This document shows, in pieces, positions 1-19,334 of a DNA stretch of 64,000 bases. Position 1 is the first letter of the stretch. Every line of letters begins with the position of its first letter. Below the pieces are notes generated by a model. The model worked only from the letters and a program-made list of their open reading frames with translations, did no database searches and was not told the DNA's origin. The stretch is from Bacillota bacterium (GTDB taxonomy: Bacteria > Bacillota_I > Bacilli_A > Izemoplasmatales > Hujiaoplasmataceae): the NCBI GenBank assembly GCA_018816905.1, contig JAHIVB010000013.1:108880-172879 (forward strand), given 5' to 3'. Position numbers and translations under genes: made by a program.

Positions 1-124
1 TTTTGCTTATTGATGGTCTCGTTAATCATGATTTTCCTCCAAATTCATCAATTTTCATTATTATATCACAGATATTTGAATTTTTGATATAATGGAAACA
101 TAAATGTTTCTCAGGAGAGTACTC

Positions 125-1072
125 ATGATTGTGATTACAGGTTCAACTGGCCATATTGGGAATAACTTTGCTAGATTGTGTTTGAAAAAAAACATCCCTT
201 TCAAACTCCTTGCACGAAGAGACAGTGAAGCTATTTCAGACATGTTAGATTATTTGGTCCAGGGAGATATCTTCGACCCAGTTTTTTTAAAGAACGAAGT
301 TCATCAAGGCGATATATTGGTTCATTTTGCGGCGTTCATTGATATCTATGACAAGAATTTTGATGAATCGATGTATGTCAATGACTTTGGCACGAGAATC
401 ATCTTTGACTTTTGTAAAGAATTCAATATTCGCCTGCTCTACGCGAGTAGCGTTGATGTCATCACGAGAACAGCGACGCAAATGCATATTTGCGAACCGG
501 TGTCCATTCACCCAGAGCTACAGAGTTCGAACTATGCTTTTACGAAAGCTTCTTCTACCAAAGTACTCATGGATCTGATTGAACGAGGAGAAATTCAAGC
601 CTCGATTGTATATCCGACAGCAGTGATTGGGACGCACGACTATAAACCGTCCAGAGCCGGAGAAGAGATACTTACCTGCCTCAACCGACATGTTTTCTTT
701 TATGTCGACGGAGGCTATAATTTCATCGATGTCGAAGATGTATCCGCATTTTGCCTTGAAATCGTCCAAAAGTCATTATTCAATTCCTATATCCTCGGTG
801 GTCATAACATCAAAGTTCTTGATTTCTACCGCTTGATCAATAAAATCCGAAATAAAAAGGGAATTTACATTAAAATCCCCAAGTGGCTTGCTTTTCTTGT
901 CGGAACCCTGTCTAAAAAGTATTCTAAAGTCATGATGCAAGCGGTATACGATAATTATCATTACGATCTATCAAAGATGGAAAAGACGTTTACACATCAA
1001 TTAACACCCTTTGAAGACACCGTTTCTAATACCATCGATTGGTTCAAAAGAACTCCAATAAAGAAAAAATGA
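125..1072 (+). CDS. NAD-dependent epimerase/dehydratase family (SDR-type) oxidoreductase
   Basis: Rossmann motif ITGSTGHIGNNF at the N-terminus. The ORF-track start at 104 was moved to M8 at 125, which is preceded by RBS GGAGAG (113-118). A TGaTATAAT extended -10 lies at 85-93. Confidence 0.75.
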   Translation: MIVITGSTGHIGNNFARLCLKKNIPFKLLARRDSEAISDMLDYLVQGDIFDPVFLKNEVHQGDILVHFAAFIDIYDKNFDESMYVNDFGTRIIFDFCKEFNIRLLYASSVDVITRTATQMHICEPVSIHPELQSSNYAFTKASSTKVLMDLIERGEIQASIVYPTAVIGTHDYKPSRAGEEILTCLNRHVFFYVDGGYNFIDVEDVSAFCLEIVQKSLFNSYILGGHNIKVLDFYRLINKIRNKKGIYIKIPKWLAFLVGTLSKKYSKVMMQAVYDNYHYDLSKMEKTFTHQLTPFEDTVSNTIDWFKRTPIKKK

Positions 1073-1096
1073 GAATTTAAACATTCTCATTTTTTA
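1064..1096. terminator. bidirectional intrinsic terminator between convergent genes
   Basis: Perfect hairpin TGAGAAT-ttaaac-ATTCTCA (1070-1089) flanked by an A-run and a T-run. It overlaps both stop codons. Confidence 0.7.
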
Positions 1097-1703
1097 ATGC
1101 ATTAAATTTGTTTTCGATTGTTTTTACGATCCGAGCGAACTCGACTTCGTCTTCCATATCTTCAATTGGTAACCATAATATTTTTGATTCTGGCACTTTA
1201 TATGTCTTAAAAATTCTTCTTAAGACATCATAATAGTTCGCATAATGAAATGTCAGGTAATCATGTTGGTCTTGTTCAATTTCACGACCTCTTCTTCTAA
1301 CATTTTCGAATAGTTGTTCTGTCCTTCTCATGATGACGATATGGATGTCAACATCAGGAATTCTTTTCAAATGCTCATCCGCTATCGCATAAGTCAGGGC
1401 GACTTCCATCGCCGTCATGATCCCTTCAAGCCTCAAAAGTTCAGTGAAGACCAAGTTAGAAAATAAAGTAGAATCGCATACGACGTTCTCTAGTTCTTTC
1501 GTTCTCCACATCAGAAGAAACAATGAAGAATAAAAAGCATTTTGAGACAGGAGTGCAAAGGTTTCTTTATCCTTGTAAAACAAGGGCAAGTACTCGTTTT
1601 TTGCGACAGGCTCTTCGACGAGCGTCGATTTGTAGTAATCCGCTAGTTTTTGTGACAGTGTCGATTTCCCACATCCGATGGGTCCGATGATTCCGATTCT
1701 CAT
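1077..1703 (-). CDS. deoxynucleoside kinase (dAK/dGK/dCK family)
   Basis: MRIGIIGPIGCGKST P-loop at the extreme N-terminus. Size (208 aa) and overall pattern fit the dNK family. Confidence 0.8.
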   Translation of the reverse strand: MRIGIIGPIGCGKSTLSQKLADYYKSTLVEEPVAKNEYLPLFYKDKETFALLSQNAFYSSLFLLMWRTKELENVVCDSTLFSNLVFTELLRLEGIMTAMEVALTYAIADEHLKRIPDVDIHIVIMRRTEQLFENVRRRGREIEQDQHDYLTFHYANYYDVLRRIFKTYKVPESKILWLPIEDMEDEVEFARIVKTIENKFNALKNENV

Positions 1704-1841
1704 TTAGTTCCCCCTCTGAAACAATTATGTATATTATAAAATAGATATAGTTCAATGTCAAAGCTTTTAAAGAACAAATCCCGTGTTTTTGACAAGTGAA
1801 TCTTCAATCCAATCAATGCATTCCATCATAGATAAATGGCT

Positions 1842-2420
1842 TTAGTTTCCCTTGATTGATTGAACCAATTCATGAGTGATGCCATGAAGTAAATGCAATG
1901 CTTCTTCGAGTGAGAGAATCGATCCATCCAAATATGGAAAATGAATCAATTGACAAAAGCCATTTCTCTTACTTTGAAAGACATGATTCAACCCTAGATA
2001 GTAGACAAGATTACATACATAAGTTCCTGCATGATAGGTTACTTCAAGCTTGGGAGAACGAAGATTTGATACGATCCCTTCTAAATCAAACTTAGAAGCG
2101 TATGCCAATTCTTCATTTTCAAGGATCGACTCTCCAGACATCATCAGACCAGAATTATCAGGTATTTTAGCACTCATGATATTTAAAGCCACTTTTTCCA
2201 AAGAAACCTTCGTTCGATTTCCAGCCTCTCCCATGATTACGATTAAATCAACCTCTTGATGTTTTTCAAATATTCTTAAATAAACGCTTCGATTATATAC
2301 AACAGGAAGGACTTCCTTTTCTATTTCATATTCTTTCGAAACGAAATTGTGAAGCAATTCCAAAGAAGCATTTGTCGTTCTTCCACCAAAAGGTTCAAAT
2401 CCGGTTAAAAGAATTCTCAT
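1842..2420 (-). CDS. pcp: pyroglutamyl-peptidase I (pyrrolidone-carboxylate peptidase)
   Basis: N-terminus MRILLTGFEPFGG and 192 aa length are characteristic of the peptidase C15 family. Confidence 0.85.
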   Translation of the reverse strand: MRILLTGFEPFGGRTTNASLELLHNFVSKEYEIEKEVLPVVYNRSVYLRIFEKHQEVDLIVIMGEAGNRTKVSLEKVALNIMSAKIPDNSGLMMSGESILENEELAYASKFDLEGIVSNLRSPKLEVTYHAGTYVCNLVYYLGLNHVFQSKRNGFCQLIHFPYLDGSILSLEEALHLLHGITHELVQSIKGN

Positions 2421-3136
2421 TATTTCACCTCTTTAAAATGAAGGATGTATTCATATAAGTCTTCCATTGAACCATGTTTATATTGTAAGGTGTCTATCGA
2501 AAACTCATTGTTAAGACAATCGGTCAAAAGAAAAGTATCGAATCCCAAAGATCCTGAAATCATGTCTTCAAAAGCATCGTTTCCTACCATCAATACTTCT
2601 TCCGCCAATAAATTTGTCTTTTGAAGCAACGATTGATAGTAGTCTGGATTAGGTTTTGAGTAACAATGAGATTCATACGTTGTGATGATTTCAAAATCAT
2701 CCGGGTTCAATCCTGCCCAACCCATTCGCTTGAGAGTCGCTATTCTTGGAAACAGAGGATTCGTCGCTAACACTAGCCGGTACCCCATTTTCTTCAAATG
2801 AGAGATGATCTTCGCTGGTATTTTGGAAGGCATCGTCGAATGGATGACCTGGTCAAAATCTACCGTATAAAAATCTAAAAATGTCGATTCGAAAAAAGCA
2901 TGGTCTCCATCAACCAATTGCTCGAAGACCGGCCAAAAAGCTTCTTCATTTGTTTTTGAACCGTCATTCTCACGCATTGCTTTGGTTCCAGCCCAAACCG
3001 CTTTTATGATTTGATCGGGATGGTATCCAAATCCAGAAAATTTCTTTCCTAAGTTCCCAAAATAATATTGTAAAAATTCTTTCTCCCTCAGTGGCAACAA
3101 TGTACCATCAAGGTCAAAAAACACTGCTCGAATCAT
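2420..3136 (-). CDS. HAD-superfamily hydrolase
   Basis: Motif I FFDLDGTLL at the N-terminus. Confidence 0.75.
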   Translation of the reverse strand: MIRAVFFDLDGTLLPLREKEFLQYYFGNLGKKFSGFGYHPDQIIKAVWAGTKAMRENDGSKTNEEAFWPVFEQLVDGDHAFFESTFLDFYTVDFDQVIHSTMPSKIPAKIISHLKKMGYRLVLATNPLFPRIATLKRMGWAGLNPDDFEIITTYESHCYSKPNPDYYQSLLQKTNLLAEEVLMVGNDAFEDMISGSLGFDTFLLTDCLNNEFSIDTLQYKHGSMEDLYEYILHFKEVK

Positions 3137-3186
3137 CTGTACCTCCTATGAACGCAAGTCTCTATGATATAAGGAAAAGGCGCAAA

Positions 3187-4212
3187 TTAAATTGTGCCTT
3201 TCTTCTTTGTTGAATCTCGAAGTACCAGTTCGACCGGTATTTTCTTGACGATGTCTCTTCGGTTTGTTTTCCGTTCAATCGATGCAATCAATATTTTTGC
3301 GGCTCGAATCGCGATTTCTTCTTTGTTCTGACGAATCGTGGTCAAAGACGGCGTATAACGCTCCGCAAAATGAATGTCGTCAAACCCAATCACTGAAATG
3401 TCTTCTGGAACTTTGAATCCCTTCGATTCGATGGCTCGAATCACTCCAAAAGCCAAATCGTCTGAAAAAGCCAAGATGCATTGTGGAATCTCCTTCACTC
3501 GTTCTAATAGGCGAATCGTCGAATTGAATCCACCGTTATAACCAAAGGATTCGGATTCCTGAAAGTAATGTTCTCTTAAAGTAAGCCCCAGCTTGCGATG
3601 TATTTGATCGTATGCCATCAAACGTTCCGAAAACGCTCTGGTTGTCAAAGGACCGGTGATACATGCAATTCTCTCTAATCCTACGGAAAGTGAATAATTG
3701 ATTGCGAGTTCAATCCCCATATAGTCATCGGATAAGACCGAATTTAAATGAGGCATGATGATGTCGGTCGAAACCGATGGGATGTCACTTTCAACCAATT
3801 CAATGATATTCTTTCTGGTCACGTTTCCTGATACAATCAAGACGCCGTCGACTTTCTTATTTTTGCACCAACCGAGATAAGTCATCTCATTTTGCCCTAG
3901 TTTGTTGACAATGAAAATGATTTCGTACCCTTGTGCTTCAACGTAATTTTTGAACTGCTGAATAACGCTAGCAAAAAATGGATGCTCTAAACCGATTAAG
4001 GAGATATCCGCAAAGATGACTCCAATAATCCAACTTTTCTTTGATTTTAAAATTCTCGCATTCGTATCAGCAACGTATCCAACTTCCTTGATGTATTCAA
4101 GTACTCGTTGTTTCGTTTTTTCAGAGACATTTCCGTTATTATGGATGATCTTTGAAATTGTTCCTGGAGAAAGACACATTGCACGTGCAACATCATAGAT
4201 TGTCGTTTTCAT
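3187..4212 (-). CDS. LacI-family transcriptional regulator
   Basis: N-terminal HTH TIYDVARAMCLSPGTISKI followed by a periplasmic-binding-protein-like sugar-binding core; 341 aa. Confidence 0.85.
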   Translation of the reverse strand: MKTTIYDVARAMCLSPGTISKIIHNNGNVSEKTKQRVLEYIKEVGYVADTNARILKSKKSWIIGVIFADISLIGLEHPFFASVIQQFKNYVEAQGYEIIFIVNKLGQNEMTYLGWCKNKKVDGVLIVSGNVTRKNIIELVESDIPSVSTDIIMPHLNSVLSDDYMGIELAINYSLSVGLERIACITGPLTTRAFSERLMAYDQIHRKLGLTLREHYFQESESFGYNGGFNSTIRLLERVKEIPQCILAFSDDLAFGVIRAIESKGFKVPEDISVIGFDDIHFAERYTPSLTTIRQNKEEIAIRAAKILIASIERKTNRRDIVKKIPVELVLRDSTKKKGTI

Positions 4213-4286
4213 CCATACTCACCTCTTTAATACTAAATTGAATTATACACTACCTGGTTCTGCTTTTCAACAGTATCTAGAGTAAT

Positions 4287-4312
4287 CAAGGCGAGCGTTG
4301 TCGCTCGCCTTG
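4287..4312 (-). terminator. GC-rich hairpin downstream of the giant surface-protein gene
   Basis: Perfect stem GGCGAGCG-ttgt-CGCTCGCC lies 27 nt after the stop at 4339. A U-tract is weak. Confidence 0.5.
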
Positions 4313-4338
4313 AAGTCTAGATGAAATCAACCCAATTG

Positions 4339-7300
4339 TTAACTAACGGTTACGGTCCGAACAATAACAACTACATTACCGGATTGATCTGTCAAAGTAT
4401 AAGTAATGGTGAAGATTCCTGTAGCGGAAGAGTCAAATGTATAAACGCCTTCTACTAATGTAATTTGGTCTCCTGTAAGAACGATGTCGCTTACAAATAA
4501 TTGTCCATCGTAAACATCATAAACAAGAATTCCAGCCAAAGGATCTAGTACGGCGCTCTGTGCAATTGACACATCGTTTGCGCCAACGATAAACGGTTCT
4601 GAATCGTCTACGACATTGCCAATAGCTTCAATCGTAACGTCATCTAGGTAGACTGTAGTTGCAACGGATGTGGTGCCTACAAGTCCCATGAAGAACGCAA
4701 ATTTACCATTGACGAAGGTTGCAGATTTAGGTAAGCATACATAAGTCGTATAAGTTTCCCAGTCTGTAGAAACATTAAATATTTGATCCCAAAGACGGGT
4801 TGTTGTAGAAGCTCCACCTTCCACAGCGAGCTGAATCGGTCTTGCGATGTCTGCTTTTGCCATGAAAGTAATCTTGTACATTGTACCGGATTCAAGCGTT
4901 CTACTTTGTTGATAGAATTGAACACCCCATGCGACGGTTCCTAGAGCGGTCACATCAATGGCTGCGACACCATCAGAAATGTCAACCGTAAAGGTACCTG
5001 CTCCATGCCATCCCCAACCGTCGATTGCAGGTTGAGCGTATGGTACGGATTGGTCTACTTCAAAGTCACCGTTGACGATGGTGAATGAAGAATCAAGCAC
5101 TGAAGCGACAACTTCAACATTTCTAGTATAAGTTCCGACATTGCCGGATGCATCCCTAACGGAATAAGTTAAGACATAAGTTCCTAATGTCGATGTATCG
5201 ACTTCTCCTGAAACAGAAATATGAGTCGATAGTAAAGTCTTGTCTAGTGCGTCCCAAACACTAACGCCTAACATTGGGTTGAATGTTTCGTTTTGTGTAA
5301 ATACTGCATCAGCGATTCCATAAATAACTGGTGCTTGATTATCAACGACAGCCGAAACGATTTCACAAGTAATATCGTCAATGAAAATCTGTGTTGGTAC
5401 GGAATCGTTCAGAACGGCACCCATGAAGAATGCAAATTTAGCATTGGTAATCGATGGACCAGTGTACTCTACATAAGCCGTGTACGTTGTCCATTCTGTA
5501 GTCAAATAAACGTCAACGTCTAATAATCTAACGTAAGATGCGTTTTCAATAACCATTTTGATTGGTCTTGGATCATTTGCTTTTGCAGCAAAAGTAATCT
5601 TATAGATTGTTCCTGAAACCATGGAACGGTTGAGTAGATTGAACTGCACTCCGTGAGGAACTAGTCCAACGTTTGTAACGTCTACTTCTACTTGACCATT
5701 GACGATGGCTAATGTAAACGCACCGCCTGTGGAAGTCTTCCATGTCCATTCGCCGTCAATGCCTGTTACAGCTTGATCGACTGCGAAATCAGAGTTTGGT
5801 ATCACGAATGTATTGACTGGTGCAGCGTCTTGAACCGTGATGGTTCTGACAATGACCGTTTCGTTTCCTGATTGATCAGTCAACGTATAGGTGACATCAT
5901 AAACGCCAGCAACGGTTGTATCAAGTGTATAAACGCCTAAAGTATCAATGACTTGTGCGCCAGTAATGGCGATATCAGCAACGGTAAGTTCTTTGTCATA
6001 AATATCGAACATTGAGATTCCGGTCATCAAATCTAGAACGTCATTTGTTAATACTGTCGTGTTAGTTGCACCTAAGATGGTTGGAGCTTCAGTATCGTTA
6101 ACATATCCTATCATTTCGATGACTACATCATCTAGATAGATGGTCGTTGCGACAGAAGTTGTTCCCACTAGTCCCATAAAGAATGCAAATTTACCATTTG
6201 TGAATCCAAATACTTGTGGGAACGTAACCGTTGTGGTATAAGTTTCCCAATCAGTAGTTAGATCAAAGATTTCATCATATAGTCTTGTTGTAGAAGATGC
6301 ACTTCCTTCGATAGCCATTTGAATTGGACGAGCGATGTCAGCTTTGGCTTTAAATGAAATCTTATAGATTGCTCCAGATTCTAAAGTTCTGTTTTGTTGG
6401 AAGAATTGTACTCCATAAGTGGCTGTTCCAAGGCTTGTAACATTTACTGTTGCAACTCCGCCTGAAACGGATGCTGTGAATGCACCTGTTCCACTAGTTT
6501 TCCAATACCATCCATTTTCAGTTACGCTTGCAAGTTGTTCAGTTTCAAAATCTGCATTTACTAAAACAAATGAAGATCCAAATTCTGTAGCAGCGACAAC
6601 TGTGATAGTTCTTGTAACTTCCAAAACATTTCCGGAAGCGTCTGTTAATGAATACGTTAATACATAGTCTCCAGGTGTAGCCGTGTCCACTGTACCTGTA
6701 ACGACAACGTCAGTTGTTGATAATACTTTGTCGTTGAAGTCCCAAACTTTGACTCCGAACATTGGATCAAATGTATTGTTTTGAACGATAACTGTATCAT
6801 CGACTCCGATTAACATCGGTGCTAATGTATCATTCACAGCTGCTGCTGTAACGATTTGTAGATCGTCAATATAAATCGTCGTTGGTACACTTGTGCCTAG
6901 TACGGCTCCTAAGAAGAATCCGAACTTCGCATTGGTGATACCATCAAGAGTATAATTGTATTCGATTGTATAAGTAACCCATTCGTCAGTAATGAATACG
7001 TCATAATCTAATAATCTAGCATAAGTAGAACCGTTTTCCATGATCAATTTGATTGGTCTTGGTGTATCTGCTTTTGCTTTGAATGAAATGATATAAATCG
7101 TATCCTTCACTGTAACTCTGTTCGTTTGATAGAATTGAACACCATGAGGAACAAGTCCAGGATTGGTTACGTTGATTTGTGCAACACCATTGTCGATGGT
7201 AGCTGTAAATGCGCCACCGGTGCTTGTCTTCCAATACCATCCGTCTGAAGTAACAGGAACGAATTGGTCTTTATTGAAATCGGCATTGGCAAGAATAAGT

Positions 7301-9195
7301 GTTGATGGAGCAAGTCCTGATGTAACGGTAACGACTCTGGTTACTGTTACACTGTTTCCGGATGCATCGGTAATGGAATAAGTAATCGTGTATTCACCTA
7401 CGGTATCAACATCGATTAACTCTTCTCCCGTAATTTCGATATCTACGACTCTAAGTGAGGAGTCTCTGTTGTCAGTTACATCGATTCCGAATAAAGGATC
7501 GAAACTGTCGCCAAGACTAATCGTGATATCATCTGCACCGGTAATCATTGGTGCTTCTGTATCAACAGCTGTTGGAATAGCTTCTACTACGATATTGTCT
7601 AAATACATGGTAGTTGGTACACTTGTCGTTCCGACGAGTCCCATGAAGAAAGCAAATTTTCCTGCTGTTAAAGTGGATGCTGAATGATAATAATCAAATG
7701 TAAATGTGGTCCATCCTGTTGTTACATCAAAATCATGATCAAATTGACGTACATAAGATGCATTTTCTAAGACAACTTTTATAGGTCTAGCTAAATCAGC
7801 TTTCGCATCAAATGAAATTCGGTAAGTTCTACCTTGTTCCAAAACGCGTCCCAATAGATAGAATTGAACACCATGAGCTACTGTTCCGATTGCGGTAATG
7901 TTAAATACTGCTTCTCCGCCTACGATTTCAGCCGTGAATGCTCCGGTGTTTCCTCCGTCAGTCTTCCAAATCCAATCTCCGTCACCTGTTCCAGTTACAT
8001 TAGATGTTGTTTGAACAACTGAGAAATCAGCATTCGATACAACAAATGTAGATGGTGGTGGAGTCGTAGAAACGGTAATGACTCTATTGACGTAAGCCGT
8101 ATTTCCAGACTCATCCGTAATTGTGTAAGTCAGTGTATAGTCTCCTGCTGTAGTAATATCTACAGTTCCTGTAATGATAATGTCATTGACTGAAATAGTC
8201 AAATCATAGTCATCCGTAACTGCAACACCTTGTAAAGGATTAAACGGAATGCCTAGTTCAGAGATATAAGCGCCAACTCCAGTCATTACAGGAGCGGTGT
8301 GATCTCCAGGAAGTTCTTCGAGTTCTGTCACAACTACATCGTCAAGATATACTTTCGTTGCGACGGAAGTCGTTCCAATGTTTCCTAAGAAGAATCCAAG
8401 TTTTCCGGTCGTAATCGAAGCTAGTGTAACTTCGAAAGCAAACTCATAAGTAACCCAATCAGTAGTTAAGTCAACTGTTGTACCCCAATACTTCACATAA
8501 TTGGTTCTGTTTTCAAGTTGAACAATCATCGGTCTCGCAAGATCGGCTTTTGCTCTAAAGCTAACTTGATAAATTTTGCCAGATTCAACGATTCTATCAA
8601 CTTGAGAAAATTGATTAGAGTAAGTTAAATTTCCTACTGAAGTAACATTGTATTCAAGAACGCCATCTACGATTGTTGCCGTACTGGCTCCGCCTTCACC
8701 GGCCCAATGTCCCCAAGGTTCTTCTAGTACATCCGAGAAATCTCCGTTAACGATATAGAATGTATTAAGAACGGCTTCTCTGACGCGTAATTCGCGAACC
8801 TCATAATAGGAGTTTCCTGCAGTATCGGTAATCGTATACGTAATGTAATACGTTCCCGGTGTTGTAATGTCGTATTCTCCTGAAACGACAATATTAGCAG
8901 TAATATTACCGTCAACGTTATCTTGAGCAGTAATTCCTGCATTTACGTCGAATGAATCACCGACAAAGATAACAACATCAGTTACACCTAAAAGTAAAGG
9001 TGCAGTTACATCTGGAGCAGTCGTCGTTGTCGTTGTTGTTTGAGTCGAAGTAGTCGTCGTTGTGGTTGTTGACGTGGTTGATGTGGATGTGGTTGCGGTC
9101 GTCGTTGTCGTTGTGGTAGCTGAAGTGTCAGTAACACAGGCAATGACTCCGAAAGCGACAAACGCCATCAAACCTAATAAGAAAAGTTTTTTCAT
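4339..9195 (-). CDS. giant surface lipoprotein with six tandem (Ig-like DUF5011-type + CBM4/9-like carbohydrate-binding) modules
   Basis: True start is MKKLFLLGLMAFVAFGVIAC (ATG ending 9195, RBS AGGAGG). The ORF-track extension to 9303 overlaps the upstream gene. There is a lipobox VIAC and a Thr/Ser-rich linker. Six repeats of about 245 aa follow, each with an Ig-like block (..ITGxVDTxTxGxYxLTYxxTDxSGN..) and a jelly-roll block (NADF..W.WKT..FKAKADxARPI..KFAFFMGLVGTTSV). Confidence 0.8.
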   Translation of the reverse strand: MKKLFLLGLMAFVAFGVIACVTDTSATTTTTTTATTSTSTTSTTTTTTTSTQTTTTTTTAPDVTAPLLLGVTDVVIFVGDSFDVNAGITAQDNVDGNITANIVVSGEYDITTPGTYYITYTITDTAGNSYYEVRELRVREAVLNTFYIVNGDFSDVLEEPWGHWAGEGGASTATIVDGVLEYNVTSVGNLTYSNQFSQVDRIVESGKIYQVSFRAKADLARPMIVQLENRTNYVKYWGTTVDLTTDWVTYEFAFEVTLASITTGKLGFFLGNIGTTSVATKVYLDDVVVTELEELPGDHTAPVMTGVGAYISELGIPFNPLQGVAVTDDYDLTISVNDIIITGTVDITTAGDYTLTYTITDESGNTAYVNRVITVSTTPPPSTFVVSNADFSVVQTTSNVTGTGDGDWIWKTDGGNTGAFTAEIVGGEAVFNITAIGTVAHGVQFYLLGRVLEQGRTYRISFDAKADLARPIKVVLENASYVRQFDHDFDVTTGWTTFTFDYYHSASTLTAGKFAFFMGLVGTTSVPTTMYLDNIVVEAIPTAVDTEAPMITGADDITISLGDSFDPLFGIDVTDNRDSSLRVVDIEITGEELIDVDTVGEYTITYSITDASGNSVTVTRVVTVTSGLAPSTLILANADFNKDQFVPVTSDGWYWKTSTGGAFTATIDNGVAQINVTNPGLVPHGVQFYQTNRVTVKDTIYIISFKAKADTPRPIKLIMENGSTYARLLDYDVFITDEWVTYTIEYNYTLDGITNAKFGFFLGAVLGTSVPTTIYIDDLQIVTAAAVNDTLAPMLIGVDDTVIVQNNTFDPMFGVKVWDFNDKVLSTTDVVVTGTVDTATPGDYVLTYSLTDASGNVLEVTRTITVVAATEFGSSFVLVNADFETEQLASVTENGWYWKTSGTGAFTASVSGGVATVNVTSLGTATYGVQFFQQNRTLESGAIYKISFKAKADIARPIQMAIEGSASSTTRLYDEIFDLTTDWETYTTTVTFPQVFGFTNGKFAFFMGLVGTTSVATTIYLDDVVIEMIGYVNDTEAPTILGATNTTVLTNDVLDLMTGISMFDIYDKELTVADIAITGAQVIDTLGVYTLDTTVAGVYDVTYTLTDQSGNETVIVRTITVQDAAPVNTFVIPNSDFAVDQAVTGIDGEWTWKTSTGGAFTLAIVNGQVEVDVTNVGLVPHGVQFNLLNRSMVSGTIYKITFAAKANDPRPIKMVIENASYVRLLDVDVYLTTEWTTYTAYVEYTGPSITNAKFAFFMGAVLNDSVPTQIFIDDITCEIVSAVVDNQAPVIYGIADAVFTQNETFNPMLGVSVWDALDKTLLSTHISVSGEVDTSTLGTYVLTYSVRDASGNVGTYTRNVEVVASVLDSSFTIVNGDFEVDQSVPYAQPAIDGWGWHGAGTFTVDISDGVAAIDVTALGTVAWGVQFYQQSRTLESGTMYKITFMAKADIARPIQLAVEGGASTTTRLWDQIFNVSTDWETYTTYVCLPKSATFVNGKFAFFMGLVGTTSVATTVYLDDVTIEAIGNVVDDSEPFIVGANDVSIAQSAVLDPLAGILVYDVYDGQLFVSDIVLTGDQITLVEGVYTFDSSATGIFTITYTLTDQSGNVVVIVRTVTVS
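4380..8960 (-). repeat. six tandem ~735-bp coding modules with alternating subtype pattern
   Basis: The protein motif FKAKAD.ARPI recurs at about 245-aa spacing. Modules 3 and 5 are more alike, and modules 4 and 6 are more alike, implying a two-module higher-order duplication. Confidence 0.7.
8990..9125 (-). repeat. low-complexity Thr/Ser codon tract (linker)
   Basis: ACN/TCN-rich DNA encodes TTTTTTATTSTSTTSTTTTTTTSTQTTTTTTTAP. This is a likely O-glycosylated or extended stalk. Confidence 0.65.
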
Positions 9196-9220
9196 AATTC
9201 CTCCTTTTAATCTTCTATAA

Positions 9221-12064
9221 TTATATTTTTGGTTTCCTAAAGAAACGTAAGCCCAAGAATATTGCTCCGGAAAGGAAAGCGACTCCGCCGGTAATTCCAC
9301 CAATAATCCTTCCTACTACCGAGGTGGGTTCATCAGGATCGTCGATTGGGTCGACAATTGGATCGTCGTCTGGATCATCGTCAGGATCATCGTCCGGATC
9401 ATCGATTGGATCGACAATTGGATCATCTGGTGTTGTATCAACGATTGACACATGAATCAGTTCGGAAAACATGGTGTATGATTGTCCGTTTGGTAAAATG
9501 GTATTAAATGATGCTAATAAATACTCATCCCCCACAGACTCATAGGAAGTGATATTGCTCAGTTCATCTAATGTCAAGTTTGTACTTCCGTCACCAATTC
9601 TCATGATTTCAGGAACAATGTCATAAGTTAAACCAAGTTGAGTTTCAATTTGACCCCTGATAGAGAAAGACTGAGGTTGATATATATCAAGTTCAATTTC
9701 TGTTGTATTCGCTGTCAATCTGTTAAATGTATTTTTTAAGAAATCGCTGTAATTCGTCGTTAGTCCACCAACTCCATACATATAATACTCGTAGAAATCA
9801 GCGCTTGAATTCATTGTCCAAGGCCAAACAGAAAGTCCTCTATAGTTCATTTGAAGAATAAATTCGTCTGTGAGTTGAGAGAATTCTGGATTGATGGTTG
9901 TTTGCATTGGTACAACGGCATTCAGTGTGGCACGAATGCTCGCTTCCAAATTGTCCGCACTCAATAATGCGGTTGATAAATATCCAGCTGATATTTCAGG
10001 TAATACCAAATTCATCTCAGCAATTTGATTAGCGATAAAAGTAATTACAACGATCTGGCTTGAGACTTCATATTCATCAATCAGTTCTTTCAAACGCGTT
10101 ACAATCGCTGTTTGAGAACTTTTGATTTCAATGAACAAAATCGTGTTTGTACCTTGAATGTTTTCAAAATACTCATTCAAAGTCGGAATTCTCATCGTTT
10201 CTTCAATCTCATAATTGTCCAGTAATTCAAGTGCCCTCAACTGAGCCAAAGTAGATTCTTCTACTATCAAAGAACCATTGGCAGTTCTTGTTGTTGAAGA
10301 GTCATGAATAACAACAATTTCATTATCGGTTGTTAAGTGAATGTCAAGTTCTACGACATCTGCATTGGCTTCCATCGCAAACTGCATGCTTGGTAAAGAG
10401 TTTTCCGGTGCAAGGTAAGGCAACCCACGGTGTCCTATTGACAAAGGTCTTCTAAGTAGAGTGTTTTCCGGGAACATCATCAACAAATCATAATAACTTG
10501 TCAAATCATCCAATACCATCCCGTTTACCCCTGAAACCAATGCTTGAACGACACTTGAATATTCTTCGTTTGCAACATCAGACCAAACACTGACAAGTCT
10601 TTTTTGAAGATAAAATACATTTGTTTTATTTGTATATTCAATTGGTAACATCGCCACAATAGCACCTGAAGCGTTGGTTTCATCACGAATCAAGAGTAAG
10701 TCTTCCTCAGTTAATACTGGTTTTGAAGAATCATAAGTAATTTCATAGACGCCACGAATCATATTGTATTCACTTCTTGCATCACGAATCGCATTGTCGT
10801 TAGGTGAAATCATAAAAGAGTCACGAACACCATATCCTTTTAGTAAAGTCGCAACCGCGACTGCCGTATCCGTAAACTTTGTATAGAAAGCAGGAATGAC
10901 TCTCGCACCAACATATTCAAAGATATCTTGGATTTCCATGAAAGGTAATCCGCTAGAATCGGTTACTTGAAGGTTTGCATTGATTCTAAAGACGGCGGTT
11001 TGAGGTCTTATTTCTTCTGCCAATGCTTCAAGGTCCTCTAAAGAGTTCATCATTTTGACTGCGCCTGCAGGCATGATGACGTTAGACTCAGGTACATAAA
11101 GACTTGGAATTGCAGAATAATCTGTCGTCGTGTTATCAATATAAGATTCAGGCATCGTCACAACGATGTTGTTGAAGATGGCTTTTGAACCACTGGATTG
11201 AAATCCGATTAATCCATTGGAATAATCATTCGCATTCTCGTAAGTAATTAATAATTCGTCGTTGATATATTCATTGACGACGGAACCGAAAAGATCGATT
11301 TTTAATCTATAAATCGATGCAGGATTGATGGATTCGCTGTAAGCTGTTGTGACTGGAACATTCCAGTTGCCGTTGATTGCTTTTGCAAATTCAACGCCGT
11401 TTGTCGCAGTCGCGCCTTGTCTAATAGCCATTTGGAAATAATTGTTTGGGCTGAATCGATACATGACGGAAGCCCATCTTGTCGATTCAACGGTAGAAAG
11501 AATCGTAAAGTCTGTTTCTATGATATAGTTTTTGAAACCTTGAAGATAGTTTGGCAAAGTGACTTGAGTAGGCGATCCCGTCGCAGGTGAATCCAAATAG
11601 AGGTATCCACTCTCAATCCCCGCTGAACCTTTGACAAGATTATAATCAGCAGGAATGTCTCCGTCAGCTACAGATGTAAAACTAGCCTCATATATAATGT
11701 AATCCGTTTCCAAAGAATCTTTTGCAAAAACGTAAATGACTACAGTTTCAGTACCTAATGTCAATCTAAAAGTATGAATTCCTTTTTGACTAACCAAAAG
11801 AATTCCTTCTGTAATCGTTAAAAAAGCAGAAGGGTCAGAAAACGTTCCTTCTGTCAATGCGACTTTTCCCATCAAGGAATTGTACTGTATTTCACTTAGA
11901 TCAACAGACTCCCCTTGATTAACGAAAAGATAAGGCCTTAGCTCGTATAGTAGAGTCACTTCCTCTTCTCCTTCCGCATATACTATGACGTTTGTATTTT
12001 GAATGAATGAAAATGCTGAAAAAGCTAATAGTGCAAATATGAAAATCAATTGAATCCTTTTCAT
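9221..12064 (-). CDS. secreted, membrane-anchored glycerophosphodiester phosphodiesterase with N-terminal LamG-like jelly-roll domain and C-terminal acidic DP-repeat
   Basis: Start is MKRIQLIFIFALLAFSAFS (RBS GGAGG; ATG ending 12064). GDPD catalytic motif is HRG..ENS..E.D...T.D at IGHRGLPYLAPENSLPSMQFAMEANADVVELDIHLTTDNEIVVIHD. The C-terminus has the DDPIVDPIDDPDDDPDDDPDDD repeat followed by a hydrophobic anchor. Confidence 0.8.
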   Translation of the reverse strand: MKRIQLIFIFALLAFSAFSFIQNTNVIVYAEGEEEVTLLYELRPYLFVNQGESVDLSEIQYNSLMGKVALTEGTFSDPSAFLTITEGILLVSQKGIHTFRLTLGTETVVIYVFAKDSLETDYIIYEASFTSVADGDIPADYNLVKGSAGIESGYLYLDSPATGSPTQVTLPNYLQGFKNYIIETDFTILSTVESTRWASVMYRFSPNNYFQMAIRQGATATNGVEFAKAINGNWNVPVTTAYSESINPASIYRLKIDLFGSVVNEYINDELLITYENANDYSNGLIGFQSSGSKAIFNNIVVTMPESYIDNTTTDYSAIPSLYVPESNVIMPAGAVKMMNSLEDLEALAEEIRPQTAVFRINANLQVTDSSGLPFMEIQDIFEYVGARVIPAFYTKFTDTAVAVATLLKGYGVRDSFMISPNDNAIRDARSEYNMIRGVYEITYDSSKPVLTEEDLLLIRDETNASGAIVAMLPIEYTNKTNVFYLQKRLVSVWSDVANEEYSSVVQALVSGVNGMVLDDLTSYYDLLMMFPENTLLRRPLSIGHRGLPYLAPENSLPSMQFAMEANADVVELDIHLTTDNEIVVIHDSSTTRTANGSLIVEESTLAQLRALELLDNYEIEETMRIPTLNEYFENIQGTNTILFIEIKSSQTAIVTRLKELIDEYEVSSQIVVITFIANQIAEMNLVLPEISAGYLSTALLSADNLEASIRATLNAVVPMQTTINPEFSQLTDEFILQMNYRGLSVWPWTMNSSADFYEYYMYGVGGLTTNYSDFLKNTFNRLTANTTEIELDIYQPQSFSIRGQIETQLGLTYDIVPEIMRIGDGSTNLTLDELSNITSYESVGDEYLLASFNTILPNGQSYTMFSELIHVSIVDTTPDDPIVDPIDDPDDDPDDDPDDDPIVDPIDDPDEPTSVVGRIIGGITGGVAFLSGAIFLGLRFFRKPKI
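9336..9432 (-). repeat. near-perfect tandem DNA repeats encoding acidic (D-P/I-V-D-P) repeat
   Basis: GGATCGTCGATTGGGTCGACAATTGGATC-like units are repeated directly. This region is a candidate for slipped-strand length variation. Confidence 0.7.
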
Positions 12065-12086
12065 ATAAACCTCCAATGAAATTAAT

Positions 12087-12106
12087 TTAGGAAACCGATT
12101 TCCTAA
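12087..12106 (-). promoter_or_regulatory. perfect palindrome TTAGGAAAccgaTTTCCTAA in 5' UTR of the surface operon
   Basis: Lies between the -10 element and the RBS. It is a candidate operator or RNA hairpin. Confidence 0.3.
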
Positions 12107-12110
12107 TTAC

Positions 12111-12140
12111 ATTATAATTAAAACACCAGTAAAATGTCAA
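12111..12140 (-). promoter_or_regulatory. consensus sigma-A promoter for the GDPD/giant-lipoprotein operon
   Basis: Minus-strand TTGACA (12140-12135), an 18-nt spacer, then TATAAT (12116-12111). Confidence 0.65.
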
Positions 12141-12158: not shown

Positions 12159-12172
12159 TGAAAACGTTTTCC
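12159..12172 (-). promoter_or_regulatory. cre-like / LacI-family operator palindrome TGAAAACGTTTTCC
   Basis: Matches TGWAANCGNTNWCA at 13 of 14 positions and lies about 20 nt upstream of the -35. A LacI-family regulator gene sits directly downstream of the operon. Confidence 0.35.
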
Positions 12173-12232
12173 ACTTTTCAATAATAATAAAAATTGCTCA
12201 CATAAGATGCAAGCAATTGTATTACTCTTTCA

Positions 12233-12964
12233 TTAATCAATGATGGCTAGAACTGGGTAATGATCGGACAAACAGATAGGATCTGTGGTGCTTTGGTCTA
12301 TGAATACTTGATGAAAACGAATTTTTTTTCTACCGTAGATGAAATCAATCGGTGATCCTGTCGTATTTTTGGTGAATGCATGAAAAGAGGCTTGTTTATT
12401 GATTGTCTCATCGTAAGGAAGAATCCATCCATTTTCTCTAAGAAATAAATCCACAATACTATGAGGAGGACAGTTGAAATCACCCATCAATACAGATGAA
12501 TCCGATAGGTTGTTTAATTCATTCACTAAGACTTTCATTTGCTTGAATGCAACCTCTACTGATAGATAGTCTAAATGAGTATTGATGAAATCATATGTTT
12601 TTCCCTGAATTTCAAAACGACCCATGGTGGCAATTCTAGGAAAGGCAGATTCTTGAAATTTAGATGTTCTTCTTGGAGTATCCGATAGCCAAATCGTATC
12701 GGTTTTCAAGCATTTAGCTTTTGTCTTCAAATATAAAATGGCCGAATACTCTGTCCCTTCTTCTCTAGGCAGTCCGATGAATTGATACATTGGCAAAAAA
12801 GACATCAACTCATCTAACATGTGTTGATTCGCTTCTTGAATACCTAAAACGACGGGCAATTCTTTCTTGATGTATTCTGATATTGCCTGTTTTCGATAAG
12901 GCCACCCGTTTTCTTTGTCGACGGGAACATCGATTCTTACATTAAAAGTCATAATTTTAAACAT
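12233..12964 (-). CDS. endonuclease/exonuclease/phosphatase (EEP) family protein
   Basis: The N-terminal MTFNVR motif and scattered D/H/E catalytic residues are typical of EEP hydrolases; 243 aa. Confidence 0.65.
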   Translation of the reverse strand: MFKIMTFNVRIDVPVDKENGWPYRKQAISEYIKKELPVVLGIQEANQHMLDELMSFLPMYQFIGLPREEGTEYSAILYLKTKAKCLKTDTIWLSDTPRRTSKFQESAFPRIATMGRFEIQGKTYDFINTHLDYLSVEVAFKQMKVLVNELNNLSDSSVLMGDFNCPPHSIVDLFLRENGWILPYDETINKQASFHAFTKNTTGSPIDFIYGRKKIRFHQVFIDQSTTDPICLSDHYPVLAIID

Positions 12965-12984: not shown

Positions 12985-13013
12985 TGAAAGAAAAACCTCA
13001 AAAATGAGGTTTT
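12985..13013 (-). terminator. intrinsic terminator at end of buk operon
   Basis: AACCTCA-aaaa-TGAGGTT hairpin followed on the minus strand by a T-rich run. It overlaps the buk stop. Confidence 0.65.
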
Positions 13014-14082
13014 AATAGACTTGAAGTTTTTCTTGTTTTTGTAGAACCGAAAGAGTTCCTTCAGCCAAAGCACGCATTTCATCTTCACCGGGATAAACGG
13101 TAATCGGTTTGATTGGATCGATGGCATCTTTTAAATACTGAATGAACCTTTTACTATATGCAAGACCTCCGGTAATTAGAATTCCATCAATTTTACCCTC
13201 AGCCGCAAAATAAAGGCTTCCGATTTCCTTGATGACATTATAAGCCATCGCATGAAAATAGAATTCTGCTTTTTCGTCTCCGTTTTTAATTCTATTTTCA
13301 ATCTCTTGACCATTCGAAGTATCAAGATAGGATACAAGTCCACCTTTTCCAACTAACATTTTTTGAATTTCTGATTTGTTGAAATCGTTTGAAAAACATA
13401 AATCGATGAGTGGATAGGTTGGAAGCTGGCCGCATCTCTCAGGTGAGAAAGGACCATCGCCACCTAAAGCATTGTTGACATCGACGACTTTTCCTTTTTT
13501 ATGGAGTCCGACACTGATTCCGCCACCGAGGTGACAAACAATCAAATTCAAGTCTTCATAATTTTTGTTCAATACCTTTGCATGCCTTCTGGCAATCGCT
13601 TTTTGGTTGAGAACGTGGAAAATGCTTACTCGATCAATACCACCCAGTCCAGACACTTTGGCAATGTCTTCCATTTCGTCAACACATACCGGATTAACGA
13701 TATAAGCGGGTCGGTTCAGCGGAGAAGCAAGTTCATGGGCAATCAATGCGCCTAAATTTGATGCATGTTCTCCATACCTAGCACTTCGAAGATCATCCAA
13801 CATTTCCTTGTTGACAAGATACGTTCCTCCTTGTTTTAAAGAACGCAACATTCCGCCTCTGCCGATGAATACATCAATGTTTTCCGGAACGTAGTGATGA
13901 AGTTCTAGAAATTCAATGATGATTCTTTTTCTGAATTCAAGTTGGTCAGCGACCGATTTATATTTACTTAATTCTTTCACACTATGTTTTAAGACTGAAT
14001 CCTGAATCAATTTGTCGTTGATAAAGACTGCAACTTTTGTTGAAGTCGATCCGGGATTAATGACTAGAAGCAAGTAATCCAT
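13012..14082 (-). CDS. buk: butyrate kinase (branched-chain fatty acid kinase)
   Basis: N-terminus LLLVINPGSTSTKVAVF, an ASKHP-fold acetate/butyrate kinase signature; 356 aa. Confidence 0.9.
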   Translation of the reverse strand: MDYLLLVINPGSTSTKVAVFINDKLIQDSVLKHSVKELSKYKSVADQLEFRKRIIIEFLELHHYVPENIDVFIGRGGMLRSLKQGGTYLVNKEMLDDLRSARYGEHASNLGALIAHELASPLNRPAYIVNPVCVDEMEDIAKVSGLGGIDRVSIFHVLNQKAIARRHAKVLNKNYEDLNLIVCHLGGGISVGLHKKGKVVDVNNALGGDGPFSPERCGQLPTYPLIDLCFSNDFNKSEIQKMLVGKGGLVSYLDTSNGQEIENRIKNGDEKAEFYFHAMAYNVIKEIGSLYFAAEGKIDGILITGGLAYSKRFIQYLKDAIDPIKPITVYPGEDEMRALAEGTLSVLQKQEKLQVY

Positions 14083-14968
14083 CTTGATTCACCACCGCTA
14101 ATAGAATTGAGTTGAGTTTTGCTTCCATGTTGTCCGCTCTTGAAGTAACAACGATTGGAACTTTTGCACCGATGATGAGTCCAGCTGATTTTCCTTGAGC
14201 AAGAAACACACAGGTTTTATAAAATATGTTGCCTCCGTCCAGGTTAGGAAATACCAGAATGTCGGCCTTCCCAGCGACTGGACTATGAATTCCTTTATGA
14301 ATCACTGATTCCATGGATACTAAATTATCGACTGCAAAGGGACCATCAATTTCAAAGTCGATTTCTTGATTTTTGAAGTGTTCAAGAATCGCTTCAGCAT
14401 CCAAGGTTGACGCAATCTTTGGATTCACTTTTTCAACACTCGAGACAATTCCGACCAAAGGTCTTTGATAACCAAGTGTATGAGAAAGACCTACTGCATT
14501 TTCGACAATCGCTATTTTTTCTTCAACAGAAGGTTGGATCATCATCGCACCGTCTGTCGCAAATAATATTCGATCAAATCCAGGGATTTCTACGATTCCG
14601 ACATGTGTCAGATATTTTTTGCTTTTAATTCCATATTCATTGTTAACGACGCCTTTCAAAAGATATTTAGTGTCAATCAAACCTTTCATGACAATATCTG
14701 CTTTTCCAGCATTAACTAGATCCATCGCAATTTTGGTCGCTTTTGTCGGATCCAATTCGTCGATTACTTTAAAGTTTTTTAAATTGTATTCTTGACACAT
14801 CTGCTCAATCAATGGACCGTCACCAATCAAAATCGGGTCAATGCATTTCCATGACTCAGTTTGAGAAATGGCATCGATGACGACATTGTCATGGGCAAAA
14901 ACGACAACCATTTTGAAGGTCTTACCTTTTTGCAGCAATTGCCTTAAGTCACTGATTTTTTTAAGCAT
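14057..14968 (-). CDS. ptb: phosphate butyryltransferase (phosphotransacylase)
   Basis: PTA/PTB family, 303 aa. It overlaps buk by 26 nt and sits in the classic ptb-buk arrangement. Confidence 0.85.
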   Translation of the reverse strand: MLKKISDLRQLLQKGKTFKMVVVFAHDNVVIDAISQTESWKCIDPILIGDGPLIEQMCQEYNLKNFKVIDELDPTKATKIAMDLVNAGKADIVMKGLIDTKYLLKGVVNNEYGIKSKKYLTHVGIVEIPGFDRILFATDGAMMIQPSVEEKIAIVENAVGLSHTLGYQRPLVGIVSSVEKVNPKIASTLDAEAILEHFKNQEIDFEIDGPFAVDNLVSMESVIHKGIHSPVAGKADILVFPNLDGGNIFYKTCVFLAQGKSAGLIIGAKVPIVVTSRADNMEAKLNSILLAVVNQDGLLASSH

Positions 14969-16266: not shown

Positions 16267-16267
16267 A

Positions 16268-17553: not shown

Positions 17554-17563
17554 GTCTTCCTCC

Positions 17564-19320: not shown

Positions 19321-19334
19321 CGAAAACGCTTACA
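19321..19334 (-). promoter_or_regulatory. candidate CcpA cre site TGTAAGCGTTTTCG overlapping transcription start of ldh operon
   Basis: Matches 13 of 14 positions of TGWAANCGNTNWCA. It lies immediately downstream of the extended -10 TGTTATAAT (19340-19348). Confidence 0.45.

Follow-up and report, generated by a model that had tools for sequence, protein, structure and literature searches.

Bacillus subtilis GlpQ (PDB 5t91/5t9c), phage K gp155 and the phi812 central spike carry extracellular glycerophosphodiester phosphodiesterase (GDPD) barrels that act, or are proposed to act, on polymeric glycerophosphate; GlpQ consists of just one 29-kDa domain and is Pho-controlled. In PDB 7WW4/7WWC, a 'beta-1,3(4)-glucanase', a GDPD barrel is joined to beta-1,3-glucan-directed machinery. 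Anchored, non-catalytic proteins that capture glycans on immunoglobulin (Ig)-spaced domains and are co-regulated with enzymes are represented by the surface glycan-binding proteins (SGBPs) of Bacteroidota polysaccharide utilisation loci and by Gram-positive proteins with several carbohydrate-binding modules (CBMs). A locus with likenesses to each of these was analysed in a 64,000-nt stretch of DNA (the window; contig JAHIVB010000013.1, positions 108,880 to 172,879) from a wall-less soil or sediment bacterium of the Izemoplasmatales. Both long open reading frames (ORFs) of region 4339-12140 were found on the minus strand: gene 1 encodes a multidomain GDPD ectoenzyme and gene 2 a lipoprotein with an array of Ig-like domains and CBMs, and a gene for a LacI-family repressor lies downstream (Table 1). 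We tentatively prefer to read the locus as a capture-and-cleave module on the surface of a wall-less Bacillus relative, under LacI repression, in which the GDPD would cut a glycerophosphodiester on or near a glycan held by the CBMs.

Gene 1 has the barrel and the catalytic residues of GlpQ, gp155 and the phi812 spike. Unlike GlpQ, it is anchored in the membrane, is 947 aa long and has a CBM66-like module and a dead barrel in addition; it stands under LacI control, with a CBM-array partner and a glucan context. 7WW4 is a natural fusion of an N-terminal GDPD that keeps HR, ExD, HD and ExK with a C-terminal laminarinase of glycoside hydrolase (GH) family 16, and the GH16 half matches the GH16 next to some relatives of the window locus at 2e-55. 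7WW4 is one polypeptide of 480 aa and carries a true catalytic domain of family GH16; it has neither a CBM66-like module nor a second barrel, and it lacks an anchor and a CBM array. Similarity between its GDPD part and gene 1 is only weak (E=1e-3). Interpretation of 7WW4 as a GDPD-fold glucanase was rejected, as a chimeric query showed two fused domains, GDPD and GH16. Since 7WW4 is such a fusion, the association of a GDPD with beta-1,3-glucan machinery recurs independently.

SGBP systems share a sugar-sensing regulator with the gene 2 system. In contrast to them, the window system has no SusC/D pair, carries six tandem CBM4_9 modules on a single membrane without a wall, is partnered by a phosphodiesterase instead of a glycoside hydrolase, and includes neither transporter nor GH in the locus. 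Compared with a Gram-positive polysaccharide utilisation locus, the regulator, binding protein and esterase are present, and GH and transporter are absent; some relatives add GH94, GH16 and GH161 to the locus. The nearest solved CBM to the gene 2 modules is CBM4-2 of T. maritima laminarinase 16A (Lam16A; 1gui; 3e-13), which shares the FKAKAD.PRPI core. There, one such module is attached to a GH16 enzyme, and identity is low, so its ligand specificity is not transferable to gene 2. CBM66 of B. subtilis levanase SacC (PDB 4b1m) binds fructan chain ends; the gene 1 jelly roll is only 19% identical to it. Plant SHV3/GDPD-like (GPDL) proteins are extracellular and membrane-anchored, with two tandem GDPD-like domains, and are implicated in the organisation of cell-wall polysaccharides. 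They differ in being eukaryotic, glycosylphosphatidylinositol-anchored and of doubtful catalytic activity, and their likeness to gene 1 is at the level of fold.

The GDPD assignment of gene 1 was made from residues 545-774, which matched the full Pfam GDPD profile (PF03009) at E=2e-30 and 107.1 bits (cutoff 23.6), in agreement with an earlier note on this DNA, made from the letters and ORF translations; the same profile was matched by 47 of 47 gene 1 homologs. H545, R546, E554, N555, E572, D574, H587, D588 and K648 were invariant across these homologs, E646 was nearly so, and the HR, PEN, ExD, HD and ExK residues aligned with PDB 2pz0 and GlpQ. The closest solved relatives are active GDPDs, GlpQ among them (7e-22), and the catalytic domain has the TIM-barrel fold of this family. 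Judged by its residues, the barrel is predicted to be catalytically intact and to hydrolyse glycerophosphodiesters to sn-glycerol-3-phosphate (G3P).

Further domains of gene 1 were delimited in an AlphaFold2 (AF2) model built on the 47 homologs (pLDDT 88, pTM 0.80). The LamG-like jelly roll proposed earlier was recovered as a jelly roll and refined to a CBM66-like lectin module: it is structurally closest to CBM66 (concanavalin-like fold) and is the most conserved stretch of the whole gene 1 family. The PF06439 profile (DUF1080/3keto-disac_hyd) scored it at E=7e-4 and 20.1 bits, under the cutoff of 26.8, and was matched by 45 of 47 family members (best 7e-11). Assignment of the jelly roll to GH16 was rejected, the catalytic ExDx(x)E strand motif being absent. 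For the domain between the jelly roll and the GDPD (residues 334-530), a sequence search of the PDB gave zero matches. Modelled alone it reached pLDDT 94.7, and in a Foldseek search of the PDB most of the best 50 matches, including the top one, were GDPD barrels (TM-score ~0.65, ~10% identity). It is without the catalytic His/Arg/Glu/Asp set and conserves R353, R430, R437, R460, R489 and N464 instead; both a new fold and a second active site were rejected for what is a GDPD-like barrel minus its catalytic residues. As a CBM66-like jelly roll and a dead barrel stand beside the GDPD, gene 1 is read as a carbohydrate-targeted phosphodiesterase and not a bare GlpQ. This unannotated three-domain core (CBM66-like, dead GDPD, live GDPD) is shared with giant SLH-anchored Paenibacillus proteins.

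The predicted C-terminal membrane anchor was found as a transmembrane helix in the AF2 model. The acidic stalk before it contains a tandem repeat with a 12-nt period (Tandem Repeats Finder; 4.5 copies, 85% match, 9359-9412). Slippage-prone, near-identical units had been claimed, which overstates a short repeat with this match and no evidence of current instability. Stalk unit and length vary in every ortholog (DDPV x5, VDPDP, EEPIEEVPID and others), so the stalk is regarded as a fast-evolving low-complexity linker. No exact copy of the gene 1 protein, whichever start codon is assumed, was present in a collection of 15 billion proteins that does contain the adjacent gene 2 protein of the same contig; gene 1 may be unannotated or differently annotated in the public record. 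The earlier gene list contained both genes, and overlooked the second GDPD-like barrel, the N- and C-terminal beta domains, the LacI gene and the operators.

The gene 2 protein begins with MKKLFLLGLMAFVAFGVIAC, which ends in the lipobox V-I-A-C20 (pattern match to [LVI][ASTVI][GAS]C) and is followed by the Thr-rich residues 21-61, as expected of the lipoprotein with a Thr-rich stalk that had been proposed. Both domain types named earlier scored above their Pfam cutoffs, with seven stretches of Bact_surface_Ig-like/DUF5011 (PF16403; 1e-74, 246.9 bits, cutoff 27) and six of CBM_4_9 (PF02018; 5e-63, 212 bits, cutoff 25.9). Of the six Ig+CBM modules once counted, the six CBMs therefore stand; the Ig domains number seven, the array closing on an extra one. 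The motifs N.DF, W.WKT, FKAKAD.ARPI and FFMGLVGTTSV, quoted for the modules, were all present in the alignments. Identity was 65% between CBM4 and CBM6, 56% between CBM3 and CBM5, 54% between Ig4 and Ig6 and 48% between Ig5 and Ig7, with 33-54% for the remaining module pairs. These values and the 1467-1488-nt register of the two higher-order copies agree with alternating subtypes (3 like 5, 4 like 6) and a 1.47-kb duplication. At the DNA level the module copies were only 60-77% identical.

The six CBMs were positionally orthologous to the same-numbered CBMs in three other species (L009, L001, L002): identities on the diagonal were 54-87%, against mostly 34-56% off it. The exception was the 4/6 paralog pair (60-73%), which lies above the diagonal in L002. 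More distant relatives carry 5 to 7 CBMs. The array is ancient and stable, being positionally orthologous where the GDPD proteins are 50-86% identical to that of the window. An independent Logan assembly was identical to window positions 1..10863 with 0 mismatches, spanning both low-complexity stalks and all modules, and the identical 1618-aa protein was found on 4 contigs (MBU0997732.1 belongs to a 'Firmicutes bacterium' metagenome-assembled genome, MAG). Assembly artefact or repeat collapse was rejected on the 10.9 kb of identical independent assembly, the 4 contigs and the orthologous modules in the three other species. The earlier note had named two outcomes that would speak against it, a failure to find GDPD or CBM domains and an unstable repeat number; the profile scan found the domains, and the independent assembly showed neither collapse nor expansion.

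Upstream of gene 1, the promoter matches at 12 of 12 hexamer positions and is the sole perfect TTGACA-18-TATAAT within 3-13 kb, in keeping with the two-gene surface operon with a near-consensus promoter first proposed. Gene 1 has a ribosome-binding site (RBS), GGAGG, at 12074-12070. The gap between the gene 1 stop and the gene 2 start is 25 nt, gene 2 has its own RBS, and the two genes are probably transcribed together from this single strong promoter. The hairpin upstream of the promoter is the terminator of an endonuclease/exonuclease/phosphatase-family gene and marks the upstream edge of the operon unit. For the stem-loop directly 3' of gene 2, a dG of -30 kcal/mol and z = -9.2 were calculated, and 0 of 200 shuffles folded equally well.

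Two palindromes with the operator motif GGAAAnCGnTTTCC flank the promoter and are the only perfect matches to it in the window. The distance of the proximal one from the -10 hexamer (Table 1) implies an overlap with the expected start of transcription. The distal one recurs in orthologous loci at about -90 to -105 relative to the start codon. In about 40 wall-less loci a pair of such 14-bp operators lies ~25-38 and ~65-105 nt before the GDPD start codon, and it is kept even where the GDPD protein is only 35% identical to that of the window. The pair was absent from all ~35 walled-Firmicute loci, which are also without LacI. The LacI protein matched CcpA 1zvv over its full length at 4e-42 (N-terminal helix-turn-helix and periplasmic-binding-protein fold). 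Its orthologs match the LacI and Peripla_BP Pfam profiles and are 46-85% identical, with a conserved recognition helix. Identification as CcpA, RbsR or PurR was rejected, as all NCBIfam equivalog models scored far under their cutoffs (CcpA TIGR01481: 141.9 bits, cutoff 442), and the gene travels with the cassette. Since the operator pair is conserved and the regulators are orthologous, phylogenetic footprinting strongly suggests that the LacI protein represses at the two predicted operators.

Neighbours of the GDPD gene were examined in 52 loci from wall-less lineages. The only conserved ones were the Ig/CBM giant (40 of 52) and LacI (35 of 52), the next family reaching 10. The trio of GDPD, Ig/CBM and LacI genes was found in ~35-40 Izemoplasmatales/Acholeplasmataceae loci regardless of flanking genes, and in one of these (L003) it is retained in unrelated flanks. 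Of the 41 loci whose downstream sequence was long enough, direct scoring placed the Ig/CBM gene 3-91 nt downstream on the same strand in 32; adding 3 loci that the ORF caller had overlooked, the window included, raised the count to ~35 of 41 (~85%). LacI follows the pair in the Izemoplasmatales-type clade, which includes the window, and lies just upstream of it in the Acholeplasmataceae clade. The homologs are named as Izemoplasmatales, Acholeplasmatales, Tenericutes or Bacilli MAGs, and the best species-representative match to gene 1 was an Izemoplasmatales MAG at 86% identity. That the pair matches no described system, as had been stated, is correct for the searchable literature; the cassette itself is common in wall-less Bacilli, and its core is widespread in Paenibacillus and others.

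A search of 1.84 billion proteins for the jelly roll and dead barrel together gave 346 cluster representatives (E<=1e-10), with lengths of ~240 to 2130 aa, mostly 770-2130; these ~350 clusters were defined at 50% identity. Walled Firmicutes (many Paenibacillus, Bacillus solitudinis, Clostridium sp., Cohnella) have the same core inside 936-2091-aa proteins. One Paenibacillus homolog carries CBM9, Big_2 and SLH anchors, and a Clostridium homolog carries Metallophos and Laminin_G_3; because CBM9 or Laminin_G_3 occurs in the same polypeptide in these walled homologs, gene 1 is likewise held to be targeted to carbohydrate. None of the walled-Firmicute loci has the Ig/CBM or the LacI partner. The anchor is a C-terminal transmembrane helix in the window clade, an N-terminal lipobox in the Izemoplasma sp. 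B36 clade and SLH domains in the walled relatives, and anchoring is thus adapted to the wall-less cell.

Several variants of the cassette were observed. In L006 (984-4052, P0060) and L071 Flg_new and Ig-like/CBM-like domains are joined to the C-terminus of the GDPD protein; downstream lie a small separate Ig protein, then GH94, GH16, LacI and GH161. In L008 (8887-19827) an Ig/CBM4_9 giant, 32% identical, occurs without a GDPD, together with a different LacI (30% identical), GH43, a sugar ABC transporter and GH2, and with a heliorhodopsin gene nearby. As this relative lacks a GDPD, the CBM-array lipoprotein is considered a reusable module. In the Izemoplasma sp. B36-type clade, LacI is followed by a lipoprotein of ~460-480 aa with a Thr-rich stalk and no Pfam match (L014 9063-10508 and 5 other loci; also L003 18314-19699), a candidate for another surface component. 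In 7 Acholeplasmataceae loci (L075 12401-13084, L030 15632-16315, L090 12770-13453 and 4 others), genes for a small cytoplasmic GDPD of 227 aa and a deoxynucleoside kinase are convergent just downstream of the Ig/CBM gene; the window, too, has a deoxynucleoside kinase gene close to the cassette (1077-1703).

Neighbours of the Paenibacillus homologs include the G3P-responsive antiterminator GlpP (PF04309, 2e-58), UgpB/A/E-like ABC transporter genes and an HAD-IIA phosphatase. The recurrence of GlpP, Ugp-like and HAD-IIA genes beside walled homologs argues that G3P may really be a product of the gene 1 enzyme family. The same neighbours, and the canonical GDPD residues, are compatible with two co-regulated proteins of independent biochemistry: the Ig/CBM protein would be a glycan-binder or adhesin of a laminarin-type regulon, and the GDPD would scavenge soluble glycerophosphodiesters (glycerophosphocholine, glycerophosphoglycerol, glycerophosphoinositol), supplying G3P and phosphate from decaying membranes, with a beta-glucan oligosaccharide serving only as a signal to both that necromass is present. 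The full type II fatty-acid synthesis and acc cluster of the window implies a need for G3P in lipid synthesis, the Ig/CBM giant occurs without GDPD under a different LacI in L008, and Izemoplasmatales and Peloplasma have been described as necromass feeders (PMC8289736; PMC11122141). Against such independence, a small-molecule esterase needs neither the CBM66-like domain, its most conserved part, nor the dead barrel, nor the CBM9 and Laminin_G domains of the walled homologs. The tight order from GDPD to Ig/CBM (3-91 nt, ~85% of loci) suggests physical cooperation, as does the GDPD-Ig fusion P0060. We consider this explanation doubtful, although it is the closest competitor of the capture-and-cleave module.

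The link to beta-1,3-glucan was made through the operator. In relatives the motif also lies upstream of GH94 (8 sites across the 5 loci carrying GH94) and of a 1013-aa protein without a Pfam match, which was identified as a GH161 phosphorylase (9qqk, 3e-213). The GH94 matches laminaribiose phosphorylase only (6ggy, 6e-157). A perfect operator, GGAAACCGGTTTCC, lies upstream of GH17 in L003. In that locus an IS110-family transposase (8374-9868) stands between the GH17 and GDPD genes and appears to have split a formerly divergent, operator-sharing intergenic region. GH16 laminarinase genes were found in 7 cassette loci. The GH16 and GH17 proteins start without signal peptides, GH94 and GH161 are phosphorylases, and all appear cytoplasmic; genes 1 and 2 are therefore the only surface components found. 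As the operator is shared with GH94, GH161 and GH17 and as GDPD and GH16 are fused in 7WW4, the context favours a beta-1,3-glucan-type regulon over teichoic acid.

A teichoic-acid or host glycerophospho-glycan target had been suggested in the earlier note; contextual support for it was not found, and the LacI operator and the nearest CBM point to beta-1,3-glucan. The teichoic-acid version would make gene 1 a teichoicase that harvests poly(glycerol-phosphate) wall teichoic or lipoteichoic acids of Gram-positives, with the CBM array binding glycosylated chains or the wall. The nearest characterised GDPDs include GlpQ (7e-22), phage K gp155 and the 'petal' of the phi812 spike, which have been proposed or shown to cut teichoic acid (PMC13433997). 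An Arg-rich degenerate barrel could bind a polyanion, the Clostridium homolog fused to Metallophos is flanked by Pst/PhoU-like genes (flanks from reading ORFs), and SLH anchors place walled homologs in the cell wall. The control, however, is of a sugar type and shared with beta-1,3-glucan phosphorylases and GH17, not of Pho type: the window has a LacI-type repressor with operators and no Pho context. CBM4_9 modules are moreover not known as binders of teichoic acid, the closest one binding laminarin, and no teichoic-acid-related genes lie nearby. Harvesting of teichoic acid is accordingly judged unlikely.

With the other enzymes of the regulon and loci apparently cytoplasmic, gene 1 is left as the sole surface enzyme, and a GDPD is fused to a GH16 laminarinase in 7WW4. 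Both observations would suit a non-canonical chemistry, in which the GDPD-fold ectoenzyme is itself the missing extracellular beta-1,3-glucan depolymerase and breaks a glycosidic or sugar-phosphate linkage. However, all metal and acid-base residues of true GDPDs are present and invariant, and the Paenibacillus homologs stand in a GlpP context, so that such chemistry is very improbable.

In the capture-and-cleave model, gene 2 would be lipid-anchored on its Thr-rich stalk, and the six diverged CBM4_9 modules, spaced by Ig domains, would keep a glycan, soluble or particulate, at the membrane. The glycan presumably bound by the CBM array would be, as the best candidate, a beta-1,3 or mixed-linkage glucan. 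Gene 1 would be a type-I membrane protein on an acidic Pro-rich stalk, with the CBM66-like module and possibly the Arg-rich dead barrel positioning the substrate. The metal-dependent GDPD barrel would then hydrolyse a bond of the glycerophosphodiester or a related phosphodiester type, situated on the glycan or attached to it, releasing sn-glycerol-3-phosphate, stripping the glycan, or both. The downstream LacI-family repressor would bind both operators and would probably be released by an oligosaccharide. The broad idea of an extracellular bind-and-hydrolyse device, put forward in the earlier note, is supported in this form.

Several points weigh against this model, of which the bond cleaved by gene 1 is probably the weakest step. 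No abundant and widely occurring beta-1,3-glucan is known to carry glycerophosphate. Among glucans, the periplasmic and cyclic beta-1,2 types are known to carry phosphoglycerol, the cyclic beta-1,3/1,6 type of Bradyrhizobium phosphocholine, and those of oomycetes phosphate esters. The specificity of CBM4_9 cannot be read from sequence, the UgpB-like matches in Paenibacillus are far under curated cutoffs, and phylogenetic footprinting is the sole basis for the repressor-operator pairing and for the inducer. An extracellular glycoside hydrolase and a transporter for the regulon were not identified. The window itself has no GH94, GH161, GH16 or GH17 genes and no further perfect operators, so the glucan link is drawn for this genome by orthology.

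Each of the two proteins is anchored by a flexible stalk in the membrane of the cell that makes it, only wall-less lineages have the cassette, and Acholeplasma membranes contain glycerophosphoryl-diglucosyl-diacylglycerols. Gene 1 might on these grounds trim glycerophosphoryl head groups from the cell's own phosphoglycolipids or lipoglycans, with the CBM protein as a surface coat. Repressor control in common with catabolic phosphorylases points instead to nutrient acquisition, the enzyme core is also present in walled Paenibacillus, Bacillus and Clostridium, and self-directed remodelling is the explanation to which we give the least credence.

It is possible, if rather uncertain, that free-living wall-less Bacilli have a beta-1,3-glucan regulon whose obligatory extracellular front end consists of the GDPD ectoenzyme and the CBM4_9 array. 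If it is true, either phosphodiester-decorated or cross-linked beta-glucans would be a significant, overlooked class of environmental substrate, or a GDPD-fold family, defined by the CBM66-like/pseudo-GDPD/GDPD core, would have an undescribed glycan-directed activity, the 7WW4 fusion being a second instance of the partnership. A canonical glycerophosphodiesterase linked to beta-1,3-glucan catabolism is a pairing that current biochemistry leaves unexplained. Each domain family is known, and the public names are 'glycerophosphodiester phosphodiesterase family' and 'carbohydrate binding domain-containing'. The searchable literature contained no description of the cassette, the tandem dead/live GDPD core, the operator or the GDPD-glucan link, and nothing relevant on 7WW4, on GDPD with glucanase, laminarin or GH16, or on Izemoplasmatales with glycerophosphodiester; the Izemoplasma, DNA-foraging and Peloplasma papers do not mention the locus. 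Sediments, digesters and guts commonly harbour free-living wall-less Bacilli (Izemoplasmatales, Acholeplasmataceae), which are known mainly as feeders on DNA and necromass. Polymer capture and processing by a single-membrane wall-less cell is largely undescribed, and the cassette is a conserved, self-contained candidate surface module for the task, with identifiable promoter, operators and repressor. Cultured carriers exist in Peloplasma aerotolerans M4Ah (locus L075; PMC11122141) and Candidatus Izemoplasma sp. B36.

Table 1. Features of the locus in window coordinates, listed in the direction of transcription.
Feature	Position	Strand	Remark
Terminator-like hairpin	12192..12218	-	12-bp stem, T-run; directly 3' of ORF 12233-12964
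Distal LacI-type operator, GGAAAACGTTTTCA, palindrome with central CG	12159..12172	.	upstream of -35 hexamer
Sigma-70-type promoter, TTGACA-18 nt-TATAAT	12111..12140	-	hexamers 12/12
Proximal LacI-type operator, GGAAATCGGTTTCC	12090..12103	.	starts 8 nt past -10 hexamer
Gene 1, membrane-anchored multidomain glycerophosphodiester phosphodiesterase, 947 aa	9221..12064 (ATG 12064, stop 9221)	-	
Signal peptide (~residues 1-30), then N-terminal all-beta (Ig-like) domain, residues 37-115	11720..11956	-	AF2, pLDDT ~90, beta strands only
CBM66-like/DUF1080 concanavalin-type jelly roll, residues 121-305	11150..11704	-	AF2
Degenerate second GDPD-like TIM barrel (pseudo-GDPD), residues 334-530	10475..11065	-	
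Catalytic GDPD TIM barrel, residues 541-776	9737..10444	-	
C-terminal beta-sandwich, residues 780-875	9440..9727	-	AF2
Disordered acidic Pro-rich stalk (DDPIVDPI/DDPDDDP), residues ~878-914	9323..9433	-	pLDDT <50; 12-nt tandem units
C-terminal transmembrane helix, residues 916-940, then basic tail RFFRKPKI	9245..9319	-	AF2 helix and sequence
Gene 2, lipoprotein, 1618 aa	4339..9195 (ATG 9195, stop 4339)	-	identical protein MBU0997732.1
Lipoprotein signal peptide and Thr-rich stalk (21-61), residues 1-61	9013..9195	-	low-complexity tandem DNA 9020-9114
Array Ig1-CBM1-Ig2-CBM2-Ig3-CBM3-Ig4-CBM4-Ig5-CBM5-Ig6-CBM6-Ig7, residues 62-1618	4342..9012	-	PF16403 x7, PF02018 x6
Higher-order repeat copy A, CBM3-Ig4-CBM4-Ig5, residues 630-1126	5818..7308	-	register 1467-1488 nt
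Higher-order repeat copy B, CBM5-Ig6-CBM6-Ig7, residues 1127-1618	4342..5817	-	register 1467-1488 nt
Stem-loop directly 3' of gene 2 stop	4272..4322	-	terminator-like, without clear U-tract
Promoter of the LacI gene, TTGAAA-17-TATAAT	4242..4270	-	11/12 positions
LacI-family repressor gene, 341 aa, third conserved cassette member	3187..4212	-	PDB CcpA 4e-42

A tRNA scan of the window found none. Directly upstream of the operon, the endonuclease/exonuclease/phosphatase-family gene (12233-12964, minus strand, 243 aa) has no NCBIfam match and is syntenic only in the closest relatives (5 loci). A cluster at 13012-19281 (minus strand), which L001 and L002 share in synteny, looks like one for amino-acid fermentation: it has genes for a butyrate-kinase-like protein, phosphate butyryltransferase, subunits of 2-oxoacid:ferredoxin oxidoreductase and a dehydrogenase of Glu/Leu type. 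Upstream of the dehydrogenase gene there is a cre-like site, GAAAACGCTTAC (19322-19333). Fatty-acid synthesis is encoded by a complete block at 35051-43321 (minus strand; accB/C/D/A, fabH, fabK-like NMO, fabD, fabG, fabF), from which it follows that the wall-less organism produces acyl chains of its own and requires glycerol-3-phosphate. A GH2 gene (44008-45720, minus strand, 570 aa), followed by genes for an M29 aminopeptidase and a MatE transporter, has no LacI-type operator nearby. From 54000 to 64000 the G+C content falls to 0.30-0.34. This region, which may be a mobile or island region, encodes a surface protein with BspA-type leucine-rich repeats and Flg_new (54648-56039), a methyltransferase, GNAT and GIY-YIG proteins and an IS3-family transposase (62019-63020).

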